Assembly: GCA_949505625.1 (NCBI GenBank)
Contig: CATBQD010000010.1
Location: 434-64,433, forward strand
DNA from: an uncultured Bacilli bacterium
GTDB taxonomy: Bacteria; Bacillota_I; Bacilli_A; RF39; UBA660
DNA: 64,000 nt
Direction of reading: 5' to 3'
Position numbers and translations under genes: made by a program. The notes beneath the pieces were generated by a model. The model was given only the letters and a program-made list of their open reading frames with translations. It searched no databases and was not told the DNA's origin. Shown here in pieces: positions 843-61,267 of this stretch. Position 1 is the first letter of the stretch, and every line of letters starts with the position of its first letter.

Positions 843-3440
843 ATGTTAAAATTAAAAAATATAAAAAAAACTTATGTTTCTGGAGATGAACAAGTAAAAG
901 CCTTAAAAGGAATTGATATCGAATTTAGAAATTCAGAATTTGTTTCTATTTTGGGTCCTAGTGGATGCGGGAAAACGACATTATTAAATATCATAGGTGG
1001 GTTAGACCGTTATACGAGTGGCGATTTAATCATTAACGGAAAGTCAACGAAAAACTTTAAAAATAGAGATTGGGATGCTTATAGAAATTATTCTATTGGT
1101 TTTGTTTTTCAAAGTTACAATCTAATTGGTCACCAAACTGTACTTTCTAATGTTGAATTAGCGCTTACTATTTCTGGAGTTTCTAAAAAAGAACGAAGAA
1201 AGCGAGCAATTGATGCATTAAAATCAGTTGGATTAAAAGACCAAATTCATAAGAAACCAAATCAATTATCAGGTGGCCAAATGCAGAGAGTAGCGATTGC
1301 TAGAGCACTTGTAAATAATCCAGACATTATTCTAGCAGATGAACCAACTGGAGCCTTAGATACAAAAACAAGTGTTCAAGTAATGGAAATTCTAAAAGAA
1401 ATTTCAAAAGATAAATTAATTATTATGGTAACTCATAATCCGGATTTAGCGGAAACTTATTCTAGTAGAATTATTAAAATCTTAGATGGAAAAATTACTG
1501 ATGATTCAAATCCAATTGAAAAAGAGGAAATAGAAACAAAACAAATAGAGACAATGAAAAGAACTTCCATGAACTTTTTAACGGCTTTCCGATTAAGTTT
1601 AAACAATTTGATGACCAAAAAAGGAAGAACCATTTTAACTTCTTTTGCTGGAAGTATCGGAATTATAGGAATTGCTCTTATTTTAGCAATCTCAACAGGT
1701 GTTCAAAATTATATTGATAAAGTGGAACAAGATACAATTTCTTCTTATCCAATTATGATAGAAGAATCTACTGTAGATATGTCTAGTATGCTTGAAACAA
1801 TGATGGGAAGTAGAGATAGTGTGATAGAGAATAAAGAAGAAGGAAAAGTTTATTCCGCCGATATTATGAATAATCTACTTACAACACTTTCTAATAAAAT
1901 GGAAACAAACAATTTGGAAGAATTAAGAAAATATATTGAAACAAAAGGTTCTATCAAAGACAATAGTTCAGCAATTCAATATTTATATAATTTGAATTTA
2001 CAGCTTTATAAAAAAGATACTAGTAATGGAATTGTAAGAGTAAATCCAAGCACTGTTATGGATGCAATGGGTATGGGAGAAATGATGGAAGCATCACAAA
2101 ATTCTATGTTTTCTAATTTTATGGGAAACTCTAACACTCATGCCGATGTATTTACAGAATTATTAGATAATAGGGATTTATTAAAATCTCAATATGATTT
2201 GCTTGCTGGTTCATGGCCAGCAAAATATAATGAAGTCGTATTAATTGTAGGAAAAAATGATGAAATTAGTGATTATACATTATATGCTTTAGGGTTAAAG
2301 GACCAAAAAGAATTAGAGGCAAAAATGAAAGCAGCAATGAAAGGGGAAAAGCTTGAAGAAGCAAAACCAACTTCTTATACTTATGAAGAACTTTTAAATT
2401 TATCCTATAAGCTTCTATTAAACTCTGATTATTACAACTATGAAAATGGAATTTGGATGAATAAAAGTGATGACGAAAACTATATGAAGCAAAAGATAGA
2501 AGCAGCAGAAGAAATAAAAGTAGTTGGAATCATTAGACAAAATGACCAAACATTAGCACAAGGAATGAGTGGTGGAGTTGGTTATTTAAAAGAGTTAAAA
2601 GAATATGTCATTCAAAAATCAAATGAATCAGAAGTTGTAAAAGCCCAAAAGGAAAATCCAACAGTTAATATTTTTTCTGGATTAGAATTTCCAAAAGAAA
2701 ATGAAAATACAAATTTTGATTTTAATTCTTTAACAGACGAACAGAAATATGCATTAAGTCAGTTAAGTGCAGAAGAAATCGCCAAAATGATGGAAGCTTA
2801 TACAGAAAATAAGAATGCTTCTTATGAGAAAAATTTAATGAAGTTAGGAGCAATTGATTTAGAAAAACCATCTGGTATTTATATTTACCCAAAAGATTTT
2901 AAATCAAAAGATTTAATTTCTGATGCAATTACAGAGTATAATGATATACAAAAGAAAAATGGAAAAGAAGAAAATGTCATTAATTATACTGATATTGTTG
3001 GTATTATGTTAAAATCAGTTAGTCAAATTATTGATATTATTAGTTATGTTTTAATTGCTTTTGTAGGAATTTCCTTAATTGTTTCTTCCATTATGATTGG
3101 TATTATTACCTATATTTCTGTACTAGAAAGAACAAAAGAAATTGGAATATTAAGGGCAATTGGTGCAAGTAAAAAAGATATTTCAAGAGTCTTTAATGCC
3201 GAAACATTAATTGTTGGGTTTATTTCTGGAGCATTTGGAATTTTGATTACAATATTATTGACAATACCAATTAACAAAGTTATTTATGCACTTACAAATG
3301 TCAGTATTGTAACAGCAGTACCTTTTGCAGCCGCTATTATTCTAATCTTAATTAGTATGGGATTAACCGTAATAGCAGGTTTAATTCCAGCTAAAATAGC
3401 AAGTAAAAAAGACCCTGTTATTGCTCTTAGAACAGAATAG
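843..3440 (+). CDS. ABC transporter: ATP-binding domain fused to an FtsX-type permease (MacB-like)
   Basis: N-terminal Walker A GPSGCGKTT, ABC signature LSGGQMQRVAIARAL and Walker B IILADEPTGALD. The C-terminus has 4 TM helices typical of the FtsX/MacB permease fold. Start ambiguous between GTG 834, ATG 837 and ATG 843; 843 has the best RBS spacing. Confidence 0.85.
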   Translation: MLKLKNIKKTYVSGDEQVKALKGIDIEFRNSEFVSILGPSGCGKTTLLNIIGGLDRYTSGDLIINGKSTKNFKNRDWDAYRNYSIGFVFQSYNLIGHQTVLSNVELALTISGVSKKERRKRAIDALKSVGLKDQIHKKPNQLSGGQMQRVAIARALVNNPDIILADEPTGALDTKTSVQVMEILKEISKDKLIIMVTHNPDLAETYSSRIIKILDGKITDDSNPIEKEEIETKQIETMKRTSMNFLTAFRLSLNNLMTKKGRTILTSFAGSIGIIGIALILAISTGVQNYIDKVEQDTISSYPIMIEESTVDMSSMLETMMGSRDSVIENKEEGKVYSADIMNNLLTTLSNKMETNNLEELRKYIETKGSIKDNSSAIQYLYNLNLQLYKKDTSNGIVRVNPSTVMDAMGMGEMMEASQNSMFSNFMGNSNTHADVFTELLDNRDLLKSQYDLLAGSWPAKYNEVVLIVGKNDEISDYTLYALGLKDQKELEAKMKAAMKGEKLEEAKPTSYTYEELLNLSYKLLLNSDYYNYENGIWMNKSDDENYMKQKIEAAEEIKVVGIIRQNDQTLAQGMSGGVGYLKELKEYVIQKSNESEVVKAQKENPTVNIFSGLEFPKENENTNFDFNSLTDEQKYALSQLSAEEIAKMMEAYTENKNASYEKNLMKLGAIDLEKPSGIYIYPKDFKSKDLISDAITEYNDIQKKNGKEENVINYTDIVGIMLKSVSQIIDIISYVLIAFVGISLIVSSIMIGIITYISVLERTKEIGILRAIGASKKDISRVFNAETLIVGFISGAFGILITILLTIPINKVIYALTNVSIVTAVPFAAAIILILISMGLTVIAGLIPAKIASKKDPVIALRTE

Positions 3441-27707: not shown

Positions 27708-28046
27708 AGATATCTTCCTTTCTATTAAAAAATGGCCTTGTGAGTACACAAAACCATTAAAAATAGAAATTATTTCTATGATAATAATTTTGAAAGCACT
27801 CCACAAGTTTCTCTTGTGACAGTCCAGCCCATGTTATGTAGCTGTCCCAACAAAATAAGATTCAGATATCTTATTTCATTTCGGCAAAACTTCCTTTCCT
27901 TAACAACAATAATCTGAGTAATTGTTAAGTACTAATAAGCTTCGCGACCTCTTTCGATTAGGTCTAATTCTAGCATAAAGAATTATATTTGTCAAATAGA
28001 AGTTTATTTTTACAAAAATGTGTCATTCTATAAATGAGGTGACAAA

Positions 28047-31311: not shown

Positions 31312-31565
31312 TTGTAAGCAAAAAAAAAATGTGCTAAAATGAAAGTGTTTATGAAAAACAGGGAAGAGAAGTAGTAATAAATGTCGATATGAATAGAGAG
31401 TCTATGGTTGGTGGAAATAGATAATATCAGTTTATGAATTCGTCTTGGAGTTTTATATGCAAAACATATAACGGTAACGCGTTACAGTTCTAAGGTAGAA
31501 TGTTCTACAAATTAAGGTGGTACCACGTAAATCACGTCCTTATAGGGATTGTGATTTTTTTATTT
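31312..31565 (+). promoter_or_regulatory. Promoter plus T-box leader (Phe specifier) with terminator/antiterminator upstream of pheS
   Basis: Promoter TTGTAA...TGcTAAAAT at 31312-31340. AGAGAG-type stem I, a UUC specifier context, the T-box sequence aattaaggtggtaccacg, then a hairpin plus a T-run just before the RBS. Confidence 0.7.
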
Positions 31566-31577
31566 AGGAGGGATAGT

Positions 31578-32627
31578 ATGAAAGAAAAAGTAGAAAATTT
31601 AAAAAAAGAAATAACCGAAAAAGTAAAAGAAGTTATTTCTTTAAAAGAACTAAATGATTTAAAAGTTGAATATTTAGGAAAAAAAGGTCCAATTAACGAA
31701 CTAAGTTCTATGATGAGAGATTTATCTGTTGATGAGAAAAAAGAATTTGGTCGAGTATTAAATGAAGTAAAAACAGAAGTAGGAAATTTATTTGATACAG
31801 CACGAAAAGAGTTAGAAGAAAAGGAATTAAATGAAAAACTAGAACGTGAAAAAATTGATATCACATTACCAAGCTCAAAAGTACATGTAGGTAGCACTCA
31901 TCCTATTACAAAAGTCATTGAAGAAATAGAAGATTTATTTGTATCAATGGGATACGATGTAGTAGAAGGACCTGAAATAGAAGAAGATTTATATAATTTT
32001 GAAAAATTAAATTTACCAAAAGGACACCCAGCTAGAGATGCCCAAGATAGTTTCTATATTACAGAAGAGATGTTGCTTCGTACTCAGACTTCTCCTGTAC
32101 AAGCTAGAACAATGGATGCTAATTTAGAAAAAACACCAATTAGAGTTATTTGTCCTGGAAAAGTATACAGAAGAGATGATGATGATGCAACTCATTCTCA
32201 TCAATTTACACAAATAGAAGGACTTGTAGTAGGAGAAAATATCAGTCTTTCTCATTTAAAAGGAACTTTAGAAGAAGTCGCTAAAAAATTATTTGGAGAA
32301 GATAGAGAAGTTCGTTTTCGACCAAGCTTTTTCCCATTTACAGAACCAAGTTTAGAAGTAGATGTTAGTTGTTTTAAATGTGGAGGAAGTGGATGCTCTA
32401 TTTGTAAAGGAACTGGTTGGATTGAAATCTTAGGTTCTGGTATGGTTCATCCAAATGTTTTAAGAGGTTGTGGATATGACCCAGAAAAATATACTGGATT
32501 TGCGTTTGGTATGGGTCCAGAAAGAATTGCAATGCTCAAATATGGAATTCATGATATTCGTAATTTCTATATTGATGATTTGAGATTTTTAGAAGATTTC
32601 AACCGTGTAGAAGGAAGTGAAGAATAA
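31578..32627 (+). CDS. pheS: phenylalanine--tRNA ligase alpha subunit
   Basis: Class II aaRS motifs ([30 protein letters not shown]). The annotated ORF start at 31500 lies inside the T-box leader; the true start is MKEKVENL. Confidence 0.9.
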
Positions 32628-35011
32628 TGCGTTTAAGTAAAGATTTTTTAAGTGATTATATTGATTTATCAAATATTTCTTATTCTGATTTAGCTGATAA
32701 AATGGTATTTGCTGGAAATGAATATGAAAGTATTGGAAAACTTTGCAATGCCACTGGACTTGTTGTTGGATATGTGGAAACTTGCGAAAACCATCCTGAA
32801 TCAGACCATCTTCATATTTGTAATGTCAATTTAGGAAGTGAAACTGTTCAAATTTTATGTGGGGCTCCAAATGTAAAAGCTGGAGAAAAAGTAATTGTAG
32901 CAACGGTTGGAGCTGAACTTCCAGGAGGAACTATCAAAAAAGCAAAATTAGCTGGAATGGAATCCCATGGAATGATTTGTTCTTTGGCTGAACTAGGCTT
33001 AGAATCAAAATATTTAAAGGAAGAAGATTCTGCTGGAATCCATATATTAGATGATGATGCTCCTGTTGGAGAAGATGCACTTCATTACTTAGGATTGGAT
33101 GATGAAATCATTGATTTTGAATTAACCGCAGATAGAGCTGATTTATTAAGCGTAATTGGGATGGCTTATGAAGTTGGAGCAATTTATGATAAAAAAGTTA
33201 CGTTACCAGAAATTCATCTTCATGAAACAAAAGAAAATATTAATGACATCATGAAGCTTGAAGTAAAGACAGAGAATTGTTCTATTTATTTAGGAAAGAT
33301 TGTAAGGAATGTTACAATTAAAGAAAGTCCTAAATTTATCAAAAATCGTTTAATGGCAAGTGGAATAAGACCAATTAATAACGTTGTTGATATCAGTAAT
33401 TATGTAATGCTTGAATATGGACAACCACTTCATTTCTTTGATAAAGACCGTTTAGGAGATGAAGTAATTGTTAGAATGTCTTCCAATGAAGAAACTTTAA
33501 CAACATTAGATGGAAAAGAAAGAACTTTAAAAGATACTGACATTGTGATTGCAAATGCAAATGTTCCAGTAGCACTTGCAGGTGTTATGGGAGGACTAGA
33601 AACAGAAATAGAAAAAGATACCAAAAATATTTTTATTGAAGCAGCTATTTTTGAACCAACTCATATTCGTTATACTTCAAAAGCAATTTTAAGAAGTGAA
33701 GCAAGTAGTCGTTATGAAAAAGGCGTAGACCCTTATAGAACTTTATTAGCTTTAAATAGAGCTTGTGAATTGTTAGAACTTTATGCAGGAGGAGAAGTAA
33801 GTTCTGGAGTACTTACTCATGATACAACCAACAAAGAAGACAAAAAAATAGAAGTTCCATTAGAGAAAGTACAAAGCGTTTTAGGAATGCCAATCACCAA
33901 AGAAGATGTATGTGAAATCTTACCAAGATTAGGCTTTTCTTATGAAATAAAATATAATACATTTGAAGTATCTGTACCAACAAGAAGATTAGACGTAAAT
34001 ATCAAAGAAGATGTTATTGCAGAAATTGGAAAAATTTATGGATATAATAAAGTTGTTGGAACATTACCTATAGATAAAATTAGAAAAGGGACTTACTCTA
34101 AAAAAGCAAAACTAGAAAGAGTAATTCGTAAACAATTAACTGCACTCGGTTTAAATCAAGTAATTACTTATTCTTTGGTAAGTGAAGAAGATATAGAGAA
34201 ATTTGTTTCAAGTGAAAAAGATTCTGTTATTTTAAATTCACCAATGAGTGAAGATAGAAAGATTATGAGAAAGTCATTGATTCCATCTTTATTGCATGTT
34301 TATGAATACAATATAGCACGTAATCGAAAAGACATTTCTATTTTTGAAACAGGGTCTATTTATTATAAAGAGAAAGAAACTTACAAAGAAGATTTTACTT
34401 TATCAGGACTTATGAGTGGTGTTTATGAAGAAAATACTTGGCAAGGTAATAAAATGAATGTTGATTTTTATTTAGTAAAAGGAATTATAGAAAATTTACT
34501 TGGATTCTTAGGGCTTACCAATCGTTATCAATTTGATACAGAAAATCTAGTAAAAGAATTACATCCTGGAATGAGTGCTAGAATATTAATTGATAGGGAA
34601 GTAGTCGGATTTATTGGAAGAGTGCATCCTAGTGTTTGCAAACAAGAGGTTTATGTGTTTGAACTTAATTTACAAAAAGTATTAGACTTAAAAGTAAAAC
34701 CGATTAAGTTTAAAGAGATTCCAAAATTCCCAAGTGTAAAAAAGGATGTAGCATTCATTGTTAAAAAAGAAATTACTTCAAAAGAAATAGAAGAAGTTAT
34801 TAAAAAAGCTGGAAGTAGAATATTAACTAATATTGATGTATTTGATGTTTACGAAGGTGAAAATGTAAAAGAAGACGAGAAATCTATTGCTTATGCATTA
34901 ACATTTAGTGACCCAAATAAGACATTAAATGATGAAGAAGTTACTGTTATATTTGAAAAGATTATTGATGAAGTAACTAGTAAATTACCAGCAGAACTTA
35001 GAAATAAATAA
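32627..35011 (+). CDS. pheT: phenylalanine--tRNA ligase beta subunit
   Basis: 794 aa with the tRNA-binding, B3/4, B5 and FDX-ACB domain order. Translationally coupled to pheS. Confidence 0.9.
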   Translation: MRLSKDFLSDYIDLSNISYSDLADKMVFAGNEYESIGKLCNATGLVVGYVETCENHPESDHLHICNVNLGSETVQILCGAPNVKAGEKVIVATVGAELPGGTIKKAKLAGMESHGMICSLAELGLESKYLKEEDSAGIHILDDDAPVGEDALHYLGLDDEIIDFELTADRADLLSVIGMAYEVGAIYDKKVTLPEIHLHETKENINDIMKLEVKTENCSIYLGKIVRNVTIKESPKFIKNRLMASGIRPINNVVDISNYVMLEYGQPLHFFDKDRLGDEVIVRMSSNEETLTTLDGKERTLKDTDIVIANANVPVALAGVMGGLETEIEKDTKNIFIEAAIFEPTHIRYTSKAILRSEASSRYEKGVDPYRTLLALNRACELLELYAGGEVSSGVLTHDTTNKEDKKIEVPLEKVQSVLGMPITKEDVCEILPRLGFSYEIKYNTFEVSVPTRRLDVNIKEDVIAEIGKIYGYNKVVGTLPIDKIRKGTYSKKAKLERVIRKQLTALGLNQVITYSLVSEEDIEKFVSSEKDSVILNSPMSEDRKIMRKSLIPSLLHVYEYNIARNRKDISIFETGSIYYKEKETYKEDFTLSGLMSGVYEENTWQGNKMNVDFYLVKGIIENLLGFLGLTNRYQFDTENLVKELHPGMSARILIDREVVGFIGRVHPSVCKQEVYVFELNLQKVLDLKVKPIKFKEIPKFPSVKKDVAFIVKKEITSKEIEEVIKKAGSRILTNIDVFDVYEGENVKEDEKSIAYALTFSDPNKTLNDEEVTVIFEKIIDEVTSKLPAELRNK

Positions 35012-35017
35012 AAAAAG

Positions 35018-35050
35018 ATTGTAATGAATTTGCCTCATTACAATTTTTTA
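35018..35050 (+). terminator. Rho-independent terminator of pheT
   Basis: attgtaatga-atttgcc-tcattacaat followed by tttttta. Confidence 0.7.
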
Positions 35051-35104
35051 ATGTTATTAAAAAAAATTTCTATGTTTGAAAAAACATAGAAAGGATTAGT
35101 TTCA

Positions 35105-35173
35105 ATGGAATTAGTCGTTGCATTTGCAATGATTATATTTTACACTATCATAGTCCTTAAGAATAAGGATTAA
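35105..35173 (+). CDS. 22-aa hydrophobic peptide MELVVAFAMIIFYTIIVLKNKD; candidate type I toxin
   Basis: RBS AAGGA sits 9 nt before the ATG. A single TM-length hydrophobic stretch is followed by a charged KNKD tail, then a hairpin. Confidence 0.45.
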   Translation: MELVVAFAMIIFYTIIVLKNKD

Positions 35174-35180
35174 CTTAAAT

Positions 35181-35215
35181 GAAAACACGAATCAGTATTT
35201 TGAAACTGTGTTTTC
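35181..35215. terminator. Hairpin gaaaacac/gtgttttc downstream of peptide ORF copy 1; candidate bidirectional terminator
   Basis: Conserved in copy 2 with a compensatory extension (gaaaacacc/ggtgttttc). Confidence 0.45.
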
Positions 35216-35295
35216 TCAACATTTAATGTGGAGTTACACTTAACAGGCAATATCAAATGTATCTCATTTTCAACAAACTTATTCCATCTATATAC

Positions 35296-35324
35296 ATTGT
35301 ACTAGAGTATTTTCGTTTTGTCAA
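35296..35324 (-). promoter_or_regulatory. Perfect sigma-A promoter on the minus strand (TTGACA, 17 nt spacer, TACAAT), convergent with peptide ORF copy 1; candidate antisense-RNA promoter
   Basis: The reverse complement of 35296-35324 reads ttgacaaaacgaaaatactctagtacaat. There is no minus-strand ORF downstream of it. Confidence 0.5.
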
Positions 35325-35503
35325 ATAAATTTTTAAAAAATTGCTTTTTTTTAATGCACTCTTGTCTAATAGATAAAAAAGATGTATAATAAATATATGA
35401 GATACAAAAGATAGTTAGGTGTTTTACTCTAGTCTTTCATCATATGATGATAGAAAAGAGGTGATTTCTATGATGAAATTCATTATAGAAAGGATAAATT
35501 CAT

Positions 35504-35572
35504 TTGGAATTAGTCGTTGCATTTGCAATGATTGTGTTTTACACTATCATAGTCCTTAAGAATAAGGATTAA
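35504..35572 (+). CDS. Second copy of the 22-aa hydrophobic peptide (TTG start): (M)ELVVAFAMIVFYTIIVLKNKD
   Basis: Same frame as copy 1, with one I-to-V substitution. TTG start with AAGGA 9 nt upstream. In-frame TAA immediately upstream. Confidence 0.4.
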   Translation: MELVVAFAMIVFYTIIVLKNKD

Positions 35573-35579
35573 CTTAAAT

Positions 35580-35613
35580 GAAAACACCAAATCAGCTTTG
35601 AAATGGTGTTTTC
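35580..35613. terminator. Hairpin gaaaacacc/ggtgttttc (copy 2)
   Basis: 9-bp stem. Also the only terminator-like structure downstream of the convergent gatD gene. Confidence 0.45.
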
Positions 35614-35701
35614 TTTAGACAAAATGTTTAGAGTTACACTTAACAAACCAATATCAAATGTATCTCATTTTTATTTTATGAAGTTTCCTTCATCTATATA
35701 C

Positions 35702-35730
35702 ATTGTACTATAGTACTATTCATTTGTCAA
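35702..35730 (-). promoter_or_regulatory. Minus-strand sigma-A promoter (TTGACA, 17 nt spacer, TACAAT), copy 2
   Basis: The reverse complement reads ttgacaaatgaatagtactatagtacaat. It is located 6 nt from the gatD stop codon. Confidence 0.5.
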
Positions 35731-35735
35731 TTTTT

Positions 35736-36467
35736 TTAGACTTCCATATATTCTTTATAATAATTTTTCATAAATTCATGATAAGCTTTATTTTCTAAAG
35801 TTAAATTGAATCTTTTGAATTTAAAATCTGGATTTTTGCTGATTACTAATTCTTTTACCATATATTTTAAAAACTCAGGATTTCGAACTAAGATAGGACC
35901 AATTAGATAAGTGCCATAAAAATTATTTTTATGAACTCCTTCTATTTTACTATTTGGAAAACTGCCAATTCCTTTTAAGACTTCAAACATTACATTTTCA
36001 TTACTTTTAATAACACTACTTTGATTTTGAAAACCTAAAATATATGGTTTCATGAAATCAGCTTTTACAAGTGCTTCATCAACCATTCTAAAATTCTCTT
36101 CCTTTGTATAGAAATCAAATGCGTGTAATGCTTTAATTCTTTTTTCATGTTTATCAATAATGCATTTACCAAATAGTTCTAAAGAATTTCCAGTAATTAA
36201 GAAAAACTTATTATTTTCAATTGCTTTTTTAATAGTATCTTTATATTTCATAAGATGGTGTAAAGCTAGTTTTTGATTTTCTTCTGTACCAGCTCCTATA
36301 TAGACAAAATCATAGGAATCAAAATCTAATGAATCACCAATTGTTGCGAATTTAATAGTAACCTCAATGCCTTGACTTTCTAAACAATATTTTAATGCTT
36401 TTACATTACCACTTTCGCCATATAAATTTAATAAATCATAATAAAGGTGTGCAATTGTAATATTCAT
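35736..36467 (-). CDS. gatD: lipid II isoglutaminyl synthase, glutamine amidotransferase subunit (GatD-like, CobB/CobQ-type GATase)
   Basis: 243-aa GATase-like protein immediately downstream of, and overlapping, a MurT-like Mur-ligase gene. This is the conserved murT-gatD pair. Confidence 0.75.
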   Translation of the reverse strand: MNITIAHLYYDLLNLYGESGNVKALKYCLESQGIEVTIKFATIGDSLDFDSYDFVYIGAGTEENQKLALHHLMKYKDTIKKAIENNKFFLITGNSLELFGKCIIDKHEKRIKALHAFDFYTKEENFRMVDEALVKADFMKPYILGFQNQSSVIKSNENVMFEVLKGIGSFPNSKIEGVHKNNFYGTYLIGPILVRNPEFLKYMVKELVISKNPDFKFKRFNLTLENKAYHEFMKNYYKEYMEV

Positions 36468-61192: not shown

Positions 61193-61267
61193 TATAATTT
61201 AATAAAAGAGTCAAAAGACTCTTTTTAATTTTATATTTAAAAAAACTTATTTTATCAAACAAATAGA

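Follow-up and report, generated by a model that had tools for sequence, protein, structure and literature searches.

Two tandem units between pheT and gatD of an uncultured Bacilli bacterium, a probable new family of type I toxin-antitoxin module

The 724-nt spacer between pheT (32627-35011, plus strand) and the GATase_3/GatD gene (35736-36467, minus strand, followed by murT) of an uncultured 'Bacilli bacterium' contains two direct repeat units, at 35066-35329 and 35355-35735 of a 64,000-nucleotide stretch of contig CATBQD010000010.1 (hereafter the window), which belongs to a metagenome-assembled genome (MAG) lineage with 27.8% G+C. These units probably form a chromosomal type I toxin-antitoxin (TA) module of a previously undescribed family, represented in the window by one complete and one decaying copy. 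On the plus strand, each unit carries a 22-codon open reading frame (ORF) for a presumed membrane toxin, and on the minus strand a convergent promoter for a putative antitoxin RNA. The sequence features are described with high confidence, and comparison of the units by computation established a frame under coding constraint, the promoters of both strands, a set of conserved helices, complementarity between the two ends of the predicted toxin mRNA, and variability in copy number and locus.

A sequence-only reading of this DNA had noted tandem direct repeats of ~250 bp with a 399-bp period. This was borne out by a repeat finder, which returned a 106-nt block of 92% identity at a 399-nt spacing and more blocks at 398-406 nt, by a pairwise alignment, in which units 1 and 2 share 86% column identity, and by k-mer counts, since core 20- and 28-mers occur exactly twice each in the window versus 0.00 times expected from shuffles. 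The same reading took the segment before the second copy for a 'unique spacer', while it is instead the canonical 5′ half of the unit in all homologues. The two copies are not equivalent: unit 2 is a complete unit and unit 1 a decaying, 5′-truncated one. Unit 1 aligns to unit positions 112-380 only, the first ~110-130 nt being gone, and is without the toxin promoter, the 5′ box and the strong Shine-Dalgarno (SD) sequence that are described below (AAAAAAAT stands in place of GAGGTGAT). Its plus strand retains an H2-like hairpin (35067-35092), the SD AAGGA (35091-35095), the 22-codon ORF and the hairpin T1 (35181-35215), with an upstream ORF cut to 5 codons; its predicted antisense-RNA gene, starting near 35289 on the minus strand, has lost the 5′ hairpin of the RNA.

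Homologues of the unit were collected by several routes. The two 22-residue peptide copies, joined end to end as a query against a protein database, gave a single match, the 36-residue protein P0018, which ends MQLVVAFAMIVFYTIIAIKDKD and is encoded on contig L011, where a whole homologous unit lies in another context, near a DUF772 transposase. Peptide-pattern scans added four loci in species-representative genomes and seven in metagenome contigs, and further units were taken from the gatD-pheT locus of close relatives; units were mapped with nhmmer and aligned with MAFFT. The search of related genomes that the sequence-only reading had proposed as a check led in this way to ~18 distinct units with 59-96% pairwise identity, from related uncultured Bacilli genomes and metagenomes, and the repeat is conserved in relatives. 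Within the species, variation is too low to inform: four independent assemblies that cover the spacer wholly or for the most part carry it unchanged, a fifth has it at 99% identity, and the seven differences in contig L002 fall in the SD-ATG spacer of copy 1 or in or just after the pheT terminator. The short-read contigs L004, L005, L009 and L010 (Logan) all stop 178 nt into the spacer on the gatD side, within the repeat, which is an assembly break caused by the duplication.

The 22-codon ORFs were recovered as first described, each with AAGGA 9 nt upstream, at 35105-35173 (ATG start, encoding MELVVAFAMIIFYTIIVLKNKD) and, in unit 2, at 35504-35572 (plus strand, TTG start, encoding (M)ELVVAFAMIVFYTIIVLKNKD, the copy 1 peptide with I11V). 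In 16 of 16 distinct sequences the ORF is 22 codons long, its start and stop positions are fixed and there are zero internal stops; SD-to-start spacing is conserved among the homologues and TTG is the start codon in seven of the 16. In this frame, synonymous divergence (pS) is 0.51 and non-synonymous divergence (pN) is 0.12 (pN/pS 0.24), whereas each of the other five frames has 25-60 stops summed over the 16 sequences or a pN/pS of 0.35-1.5. Of the six frames, the 22-codon one alone shows purifying selection. Minus-strand ORFs of 25-26 codons lying over the toxin ORF were considered and rejected, on the stops in other units and on pN/pS.

The consensus peptide, M[EQHK]L[VIM][VI][AI]F[AIV][MTIA]I[VI][FL]YT[IV][IL][VA][LI]K[NDK]K[DN], consists of a 16-residue hydrophobic core followed by a charged K-x-K-D/N tail, which is how membrane-acting type I toxins are generally built; small size, hydrophobicity, an alpha-helical fold and a charged C-terminus characterize the known type I toxins (PMC8309996). 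In the sequence-only reading the peptide fell into no obvious family, and it matched no family in Pfam, NCBIfam, PHROGs or PADLOC; the only hits, all sub-threshold, were to unrelated small membrane proteins in Pfam/NCBIfam (CydH/YnhF, E 0.02; Ost4, E 0.03). The ORF also contains hairpins with compensatory changes (helices 5-7 of the consensus fold presented below). The last six toxin codons (35550-35571, plus strand) fold as the hairpin UCCUUAAGAAUAAGGA, and in L013 and L014 a synonymous GTC to GTT change is paired with GAY to AAY (D22N) so that the base pair is kept; RNA structure appears to have shaped the C-terminal residue of the peptide.

The minus strand carries the TTGACA-17-TACAAT promoters that the sequence-only reading had assigned to sigma-A, at 35324..35296 in unit 1 and 35730..35702 in unit 2, each with 11 of 12 consensus matches. 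Promoter-like sites are not rare at 27.8% G+C, with 13 found in the window versus 8.6 +/- 3.3 expected, and the significance of the promoters in the units comes from their conservation in every homologue rather than from rarity. All 13 distinct antisense promoters read TTGAC[AT]-17-TAnnAT; the -10 box is followed by GTATAT in 11 of 13 and otherwise by GTATAC or CTAGTT, and next by a purine start. From +3 onward, 12 of the 13 would encode a 5′ hairpin (copy 1 of the window being the exception), for which there are eight compensated stem versions: GAAG/CUUC, GAGG/CCUC, GCAA/UUGC, GUGA/UCAC, GAAA/UUUC and AUAUGAA/UUCAUAU, together with a G·U variant and, in L011, a stem of 13 bp. In Firmicutes, a 5′-terminal stem shields RNAs from 5′-end-dependent decay.

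The predicted antisense (antitoxin) RNA of unit 2 runs on the minus strand from 35695 to 35574, ~122 nt with these inferred ends (~125 nt is predicted for the family), and comprises the 5′ hairpin (35693-35678), an A-rich linker, a body hairpin (35666-35631) and the terminator T1. The window sequence from 35695 to 35572 has a minimum free energy (MFE) of -37.3 kcal/mol (z -5.75) and folds into exactly three hairpins. In the body stem of the consensus fold, four pairs are G·U in 9-19 of 19 sequences and turn into A·C mismatches when read on the plus strand; because of this, the 3′ region folds poorly on the plus strand (-4.3 kcal/mol, versus -11.9 on the minus strand). The bias is reversed in the 5′ untranslated region (5′UTR; -21.0 plus versus -12.3 minus) and in the ORF (-17.1 plus versus -13.0 minus, all in kcal/mol). 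A strong local plus-strand terminator hairpin in the 3′ region was rejected on the -4.3 kcal/mol fold; the region is better read as antisense body hairpin and as partner in the long-range pairing of the mRNA described below. It follows from the geometry that the antisense RNA is perfectly complementary to ~105 nt of the mRNA 3′ region.

A conserved hairpin with a compensatory change had been noted after each ORF, and this is T1, a symmetric A-tract/stem/U-tract hairpin 3′ of the stop codon, of the general form GAAAACAC(C)...(G)GTGTTTTC, with GAAAACAC(G)...(T)GTGTTTTC in copy 1 and GAAAACACC...GGTGTTTTC in copy 2 (35580-35613, with a conserved inner UCA/UGA stem; helices 8 and 9). After T1, the minus-strand U-tract has 5-7 U in 8 in all units (UUUUCAUUU or UUUUCUUUU) and ends near 35574, at the toxin stop codon (35570-35572), while the plus-strand U-tract ranges from 7 in 8 in window unit 2 to 2 in 8 in L028. 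Because the minus-strand tract is consistently good and the plus-strand tract variable, T1 appears to serve mainly to end the antisense RNA and to be at most a partial terminator for the mRNA. The antisense RNA would thus overlap the toxin mRNA at its 3′ end, as the sequence-only reading had expected, within the 3′ untranslated region and without reaching the ORF. The T1 loop is unusually large (14-19 nt) and conserved, with the inner 3-bp UCA/UGA stem in 13-16 of 16 units and an apical loop GCUUU or similar. Such a loop would suit a first loop-loop contact of the two RNAs.

The plus-strand features that had been pointed out before the second copy are all present. A promoter TTGTCT-17-TATAAT (35362-35390, plus strand; predicted start near 35397) precedes the toxin ORF of unit 2, and TTGnnn-17-TATAAT lies at the equivalent place in 12 of 16 distinct full units; three have a degenerate hexamer, and the 13th unit, L019b, has only TTGTAT-16-TACAAT after a 16-nt deletion. 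The -35 variants of the toxin promoter (TTGTCT, TTGTAA, TTGTAT and TTGATT) are further from the consensus than those of the antisense promoter, which is the nearer of the two to consensus. One of two tandem units in L022 has a 16-nt deletion in the toxin promoter region, as does L019b (L019:3228-3584); the deletion shifts or destroys the -10 box, and such a unit may be en route to toxin silencing. The long form of the predicted toxin mRNA would span 35397-35677 (281 nt, with an inferred 3′ end reaching the conserved CUC-UUUUUUUA) and the short form would stop at T1, near 35620.

The 281-nt mRNA has an MFE of -90.3 kcal/mol versus -49.0 +/- 4.7 for shuffles (z -8.75). RNAalifold on the 16 distinct mRNAs gave a consensus of nine helices (H1, H2, the three hairpins within the ORF, T1 and part of a long-range helix), in which 94.9% of cells are paired versus 39-53% when partners are slid by 1-3 columns. 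Thirteen pairs are changed on both sides, a number equalled in 1 of 500 shuffles, and the covariation score is 0.203 versus 0.132 (0 of 500). Hairpin H1 (35427-35460), which contains the palindrome seen in the sequence-only reading, pairs CUCU with the AGAG of the upstream-ORF SD; compensation takes the form of CUCG/CGAG in L011 and of a wholly different stem in L012 and L023 (the L012 group). Hairpin H2 (35465-35491; UUCUAUGAUGAA / UUCAUUAUAGAA; helices 3 and 4) hides the AUG of the upstream ORF and reaches up to the toxin SD, AAGGA at 35490-35494. H1 and H2 together cover the upstream SD and AUG and abut the toxin SD, with compensatory changes, so that the ribosome-binding sites (RBS) are hidden in the fold.

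The upstream, or leader, ORF of unit 2 (35458-35559, plus strand, including the SD) has the SD GAGGTGAT at 35458-35465, an ATG at 35470 and a stop at 35559, and its 29 codons overlap the toxin ORF out of frame. GAGGTGAT is followed by ATG after 3-5 nt in 16 of 16 full units. The leader is 28-29 codons long in 14 of 16, all 14 sharing a CTT-AAR end site that lies 56 nt inside the toxin ORF, and in 15 of 16 units any indels between the start codons of leader and toxin come in multiples of three. In L011 the leader is fused in frame with the toxin, giving the 36-residue protein called by gene callers. Because the amino acids of the leader frame are not conserved in the overlap (pN/pS 1.5), the constraint appears to be on the translation of the leader rather than on its protein product, a situation like that of mok in hok/sok and of the Ldr leader ORF (PMC8594479).

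The 5′ end of the predicted mRNA complements its own 3′ region. The first ~35 nt (GAGAUACA..GAUAGUUAGGUGUUUUACUC) are the reverse complement of plus-strand 35636-35668, and the 5′ box (35397-35430; GAGATACA..GATAGTTAGGTGTTTTACTC) pairs with this segment of the same strand in a closing helix, hereafter the clamp. On the opposite strand, 35636-35668 is the body hairpin of the antisense RNA, which consequently is similar in sequence to the mRNA 5′ end apart from an extra loop. Duplex energies of the clamp are -22 to -31 kcal/mol, with a mean of -25.1 for a unit's own partner versus -21.9 for the partners of other units, and none of 10,000 permutations was as good (p<1e-4). Lineage variants are common to both boxes of a unit (UUCUA/UUCUG, CUCUGAUA/UUCUGAUA, UUAGAUA and a UA insertion in L027), and the helix (23-33 pairs) is part of the MFE structure in all 16 units folded, with a net gain of -20.3 kcal/mol. 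From this modelling we conclude that at least part of the mRNA would read through T1 and close on itself; the antisense RNA would then compete with the mRNA 5′ end for the shared 3′ region.

Several other pairings were modelled and rejected. Pairing of the 5′ box with the antisense RNA gave a net +0.2 kcal/mol and no preference for the own partner (p 0.35). Trans pairing as in par or SprA1, of the antisense 5′ part with the initiation regions or the 5′ box, gave RNAduplex z values of ~0 and likewise a net +0.2 kcal/mol. An anti-SD switch, in which the clamp captures CUCU and frees the upstream SD and the antisense RNA restores the block, was dismissed since the hairpin coexists with the clamp in the 16 units; in partition-function modelling of the same 16, SD accessibility barely differed between full-length, T1-terminated and antisense-bound mRNA.

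The units occupy at least eight unrelated chromosomal contexts: pheT/gatD, FtsX-permease paralogs, an MBL hydrolase, miaA/queA, an ABC transporter, tgt, an alpha/beta hydrolase and the neighbourhood of a transposase. A second site (L014 and L013), in the same genomes as L016 and L019, has flanks 75-97% identical to window genes at 57-63.6 kb; it is empty in the window, with 42 nt (61226-61267) versus 564 nt in L013 (2699-3262; the L014 counterpart lies at ~2720-3265). In both relatives the site holds a full unit, joined in L013 by an orphan antisense-RNA gene. Copies per locus number from one to three: L016 and L020 have a single full unit, L019 and L022 two each and L012 three in tandem (384-nt period), and in the window, L013 and L026 a remnant accompanies the one full unit. 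The window unit is 78-80% identical to units at the other site in relatives versus 75-78% to units at the same site, and being slightly nearer to the former it points to turnover of units between sites. All three remnants (window copy 1, L013p and L026p) have kept the antisense gene and its promoter and lost the toxin promoter and 5′UTR; although the remnants number only three, this order of decay is suggestive of a harmful plus-strand product and a protective minus-strand product. The orphan antisense gene of L013 appears to borrow the terminator of the upstream gene (AAAAGAGTC..GACTCTTTT).

As a type I module, the locus could work as follows. A moderate sigma-A promoter would give a tightly folded plus-strand mRNA of 225-280 nt encoding the 22-residue presumed membrane toxin. 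This mRNA would be silent at birth, both initiation regions lying in hairpins: toxin initiation would be weak, with AAGGA at a hairpin foot and a TTG start in some units, and the strong upstream initiation region (GAGGTGAT with its ATG) would be half-buried by the CUCU anti-SD hairpin. Ribosomes on the leader ORF could melt the hairpin and thereby gate toxin initiation, as mok does for hok. From the minus strand, a near-consensus promoter would produce an antitoxin RNA of ~125 nt that is stopped at the toxin stop codon. The clamp may protect or license full-length mRNA, until abundant antisense RNA binds the 3′ untranslated region, displaces the clamp and forms a long duplex. The expected outcome would be RNase III cleavage and mRNA decay, possibly with lost translatability; the RNase III route has been shown for the 3′-overlap systems of B. 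subtilis (PMC3531473). In this scheme, transcription, toxicity, the direction of regulation and the nucleases are inferred. More tentative than a preferred model, though worth stating as a possibility, is the specific proposal that the antitoxin mimics the mRNA 5′ end and opens the clamp by strand displacement at the shared 3′ site, with toxin initiation through a mok-like leader ORF; the antisense RNA would directly touch neither the coding nor the initiation regions. Such a hybrid regulatory design is not described for Gram-positive type I systems.

Among known systems, TxpA/RatA, BsrG/SR4, BsrE/SR5 and YonT/SR6 of B. subtilis are alike in having a convergent antisense gene on the 3′ side with overlapping 3′ ends (PMC8594479), a toxin that is small and hydrophobic and carries charge at its C-terminus (PMC8309996) and RNase III-dependent duplex decay, which is the expected outcome here (PMC3531473). 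However, the length of their toxins is 38-59 residues, and their antisense RNAs extend into the ORF (PMC8594479), whereas the antisense RNA predicted here stops at the stop codon. No sequence relationship to these families was detected, either for the peptide (Pfam/NCBIfam) or for the RNA (Rfam). To our knowledge, the B. subtilis systems have no leader ORF and lie on prophage-like elements.

Fst/RNAII (par of pAD1) and SprA1/SprA1as are likewise convergent, with the antisense RNA off the ORF and a toxin RBS sequestered by a 5′ stem-loop, and they have a hairpin terminator common to both genes, a role that T1 may play here (PMC8594479, PMC5367252). In these families, however, it is away from the overlap that the two RNAs pair functionally, the antisense RNA contacting the toxin initiation region (PMC8594479). 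Neither Fst_toxin (Pfam) nor any other Pfam/NCBIfam toxin family matched the peptide at E<=10. In par, the functional pairing stems from direct DNA repeats; here the repeats are inverted and there is no significant complementarity to the initiation regions. The type I convergent architecture first proposed for the locus is supported by the coding constraint and the conserved antisense elements, while the direct-repeat logic of par/Fst is not, the mRNA 5′ end being complementary to its own 3′ region.

Hok/Sok and Ldr/Rdl share with the module a regulatory leader ORF that overlaps the toxin ORF, such as mok (PMC8594479). They are also alike in a full-length mRNA closed by 5′-3′ pairing and in multi-copy chromosomal repeats. 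The hok fold-back and Franch et al. 1997 are both cited in PMC8594479. Sok and Rdl, however, bind the 5′ leader region, whereas here the antisense RNA would lie at the 3′ end and cover the 3′ partner of the clamp; the Hok and Ldr toxins are unrelated and far longer (35-50 residues), in a different host phylum, and neither Hok_Gef (Pfam) nor Sok (Rfam) matched the module. The leader ORF and closing helix resemble hok in mechanism, which does not point to a common ancestry. Similarly, the AapA1/IsoA1 mRNA of Helicobacter pylori is silenced by SD-sequestering structures and long-distance 5′-3′ pairing (PMC6733600), but its antisense RNA, which lies wholly inside the mRNA, overlaps the ORF (PMC8594479), activation occurs by 3′ trimming, there is no leader ORF and the peptide is unrelated. 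Ibs/Sib and Zor/Orz of E. coli have tiny hydrophobic toxins (IbsC, 19 residues) and tandem intergenic units that differ in number from strain to strain (PMC8309996, PMC8594479); however, the whole ibs ORF is covered by the antisense Sib, and Orz is divergent on the 5′ side (PMC8594479), and neither has sequence similarity to the module.

Four other explanations of the locus have to be weighed. The peptide could be a small membrane protein that does no harm, such as a regulatory or accessory subunit, and is tuned by a cis-antisense RNA without any TA pair. Its toxicity is a prediction, it shows the weak sub-threshold similarity to the small membrane subunits CydH/YnhF and Ost4, and many small membrane proteins have ~20-30 residues and one helix. 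We nevertheless consider this unlikely, as the unit has no constant partner gene across its unrelated contexts, varies in copy number and site between close relatives, retains the antisense gene and loses the toxin expression signals when it decays, and would block translation at several levels, features which are typical of type I TA loci and unexpected for a housekeeping subunit. That the functional product is instead the upstream ORF of 28-29 residues (36 residues with the fusion in L011), the 22-codon frame being secondary, is improbable despite its far stronger RBS, its ATG in every full unit, its conserved length and frame and a sub-threshold match to the Cys-rich family TIGR04333 (E 8e-4, score 19 versus a cutoff of 31). 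The overlap has a pN/pS of 1.5 versus 0.24 for the 22-codon frame, the Cys residues are not conserved (RCICNDC versus NGYIYNY), the openness of the upstream frame across the hydrophobic stretch is a by-product of the toxin codons (none of which starts with AA, AG or GA), and the conserved N-terminal 'IIERI' coincides with H2 and the toxin SD.

A non-coding structured intergenic repeat or small RNA family with an incidental ORF would agree with the high degree of structure on both strands and with a repeated element of variable location, but the frame-specific, synonymous-biased substitutions, the start and stop fixed in 16 distinct sequences and the conserved SD spacing make it very improbable. 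A match to a known structured RNA or riboswitch, which the sequence-only reading had named as counter-evidence, was not obtained from Rfam either: the covariance search of the unit at E<=10 gave only chance snoRNA-like matches below the gathering score. Finally, the position between the two operons, together with the use of leader peptides by pheST operons of other bacteria, could suggest a cis-regulatory leader or attenuator for pheST or gatD/murT. This is effectively refuted by the locus comparison, in which homologous units adjoin unrelated genes; moreover, the module lies 3′ of pheT, past its terminator, and is convergent with gatD, and pheS already has a T-box leader at 31352-31544.

The type I TA interpretation that we favour has its own difficulties. 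Transcription, toxicity and the RNA ends are predictions, and because the peptide matches no known toxin family, the label 'toxin' derives from architecture and peptide composition alone. The clamp and most of the antisense overlap require the mRNA to read through T1, but unit 2 has a good U-tract on the plus strand (7 U in 8) and much of the mRNA may stop there, in which case it would share only ~45 nt with the antisense RNA. The likeness of the 5′ box to the antisense RNA could partly reflect gene conversion between inverted repeats. The models showed no change in the accessibility of either RBS on clamp formation or antisense binding, so that a translational effect of the antisense RNA is unsupported. 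In addition, searches of plasmid DNA, phage DNA, plasmid tblastn and IMG/VR viral contigs did not find the module; a 43-nt phage match (E 5e-3) was dismissed as noise.

Around the module, the pheT terminator (35013-35049, plus strand; 15-nt arms, 93% complementary, followed by a T-run) lies directly 5′ of unit 1 and outside the module. An Rfam search of the whole window returned only two elements, both outside the module: the T-box leader 5′ of pheS (RF00230, 113.9 bits, plus strand) and a lysine riboswitch at 27786-27961 (RF00168, 114.9 bits, minus strand). The mechanically called ORF at 31500-32627 (375 aa) begins within the T-box, and a later pheS start is probable, the gene callers giving 349 aa in L001. 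Flanking the L011 unit are two paralogous genes whose predicted products are secreted or surface proteins without a Pfam match; the gene 3′ of the unit opens with a ten-G run (ATGGGGGGGGGG; L011:3851-3865), a possible phase-variable tract, and the DUF772 transposase lies 1 kb 5′ of the unit (L011:2474-3295).

Type I families are narrowly distributed and undergo lineage-specific chromosomal duplication (PMC5367252). The module fits this pattern in its tandem and variable copies and its narrow range, and is filed as a probable new family of a known kind. Such families are few (24 in T1TAdb), narrow in range and hard to find by homology, and the module would add one from a lineage of uncultured, AT-rich gut Bacilli on which no experiments have ever been done. 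At 22 residues, the toxin would rank among the shortest known (IbsC has 19), and the comparative set already suffices to specify the RNA ends and helices that direct tests would address. An RNA switch this compact and orthogonal could also serve as a post-transcriptional device. If the clamp and the leader ORF are functional, the family would join features of the Gram-negative hok, ldr and aapA systems to the 3′-convergent layout of Gram-positive systems, which bears on the repeated evolution of such regulation.

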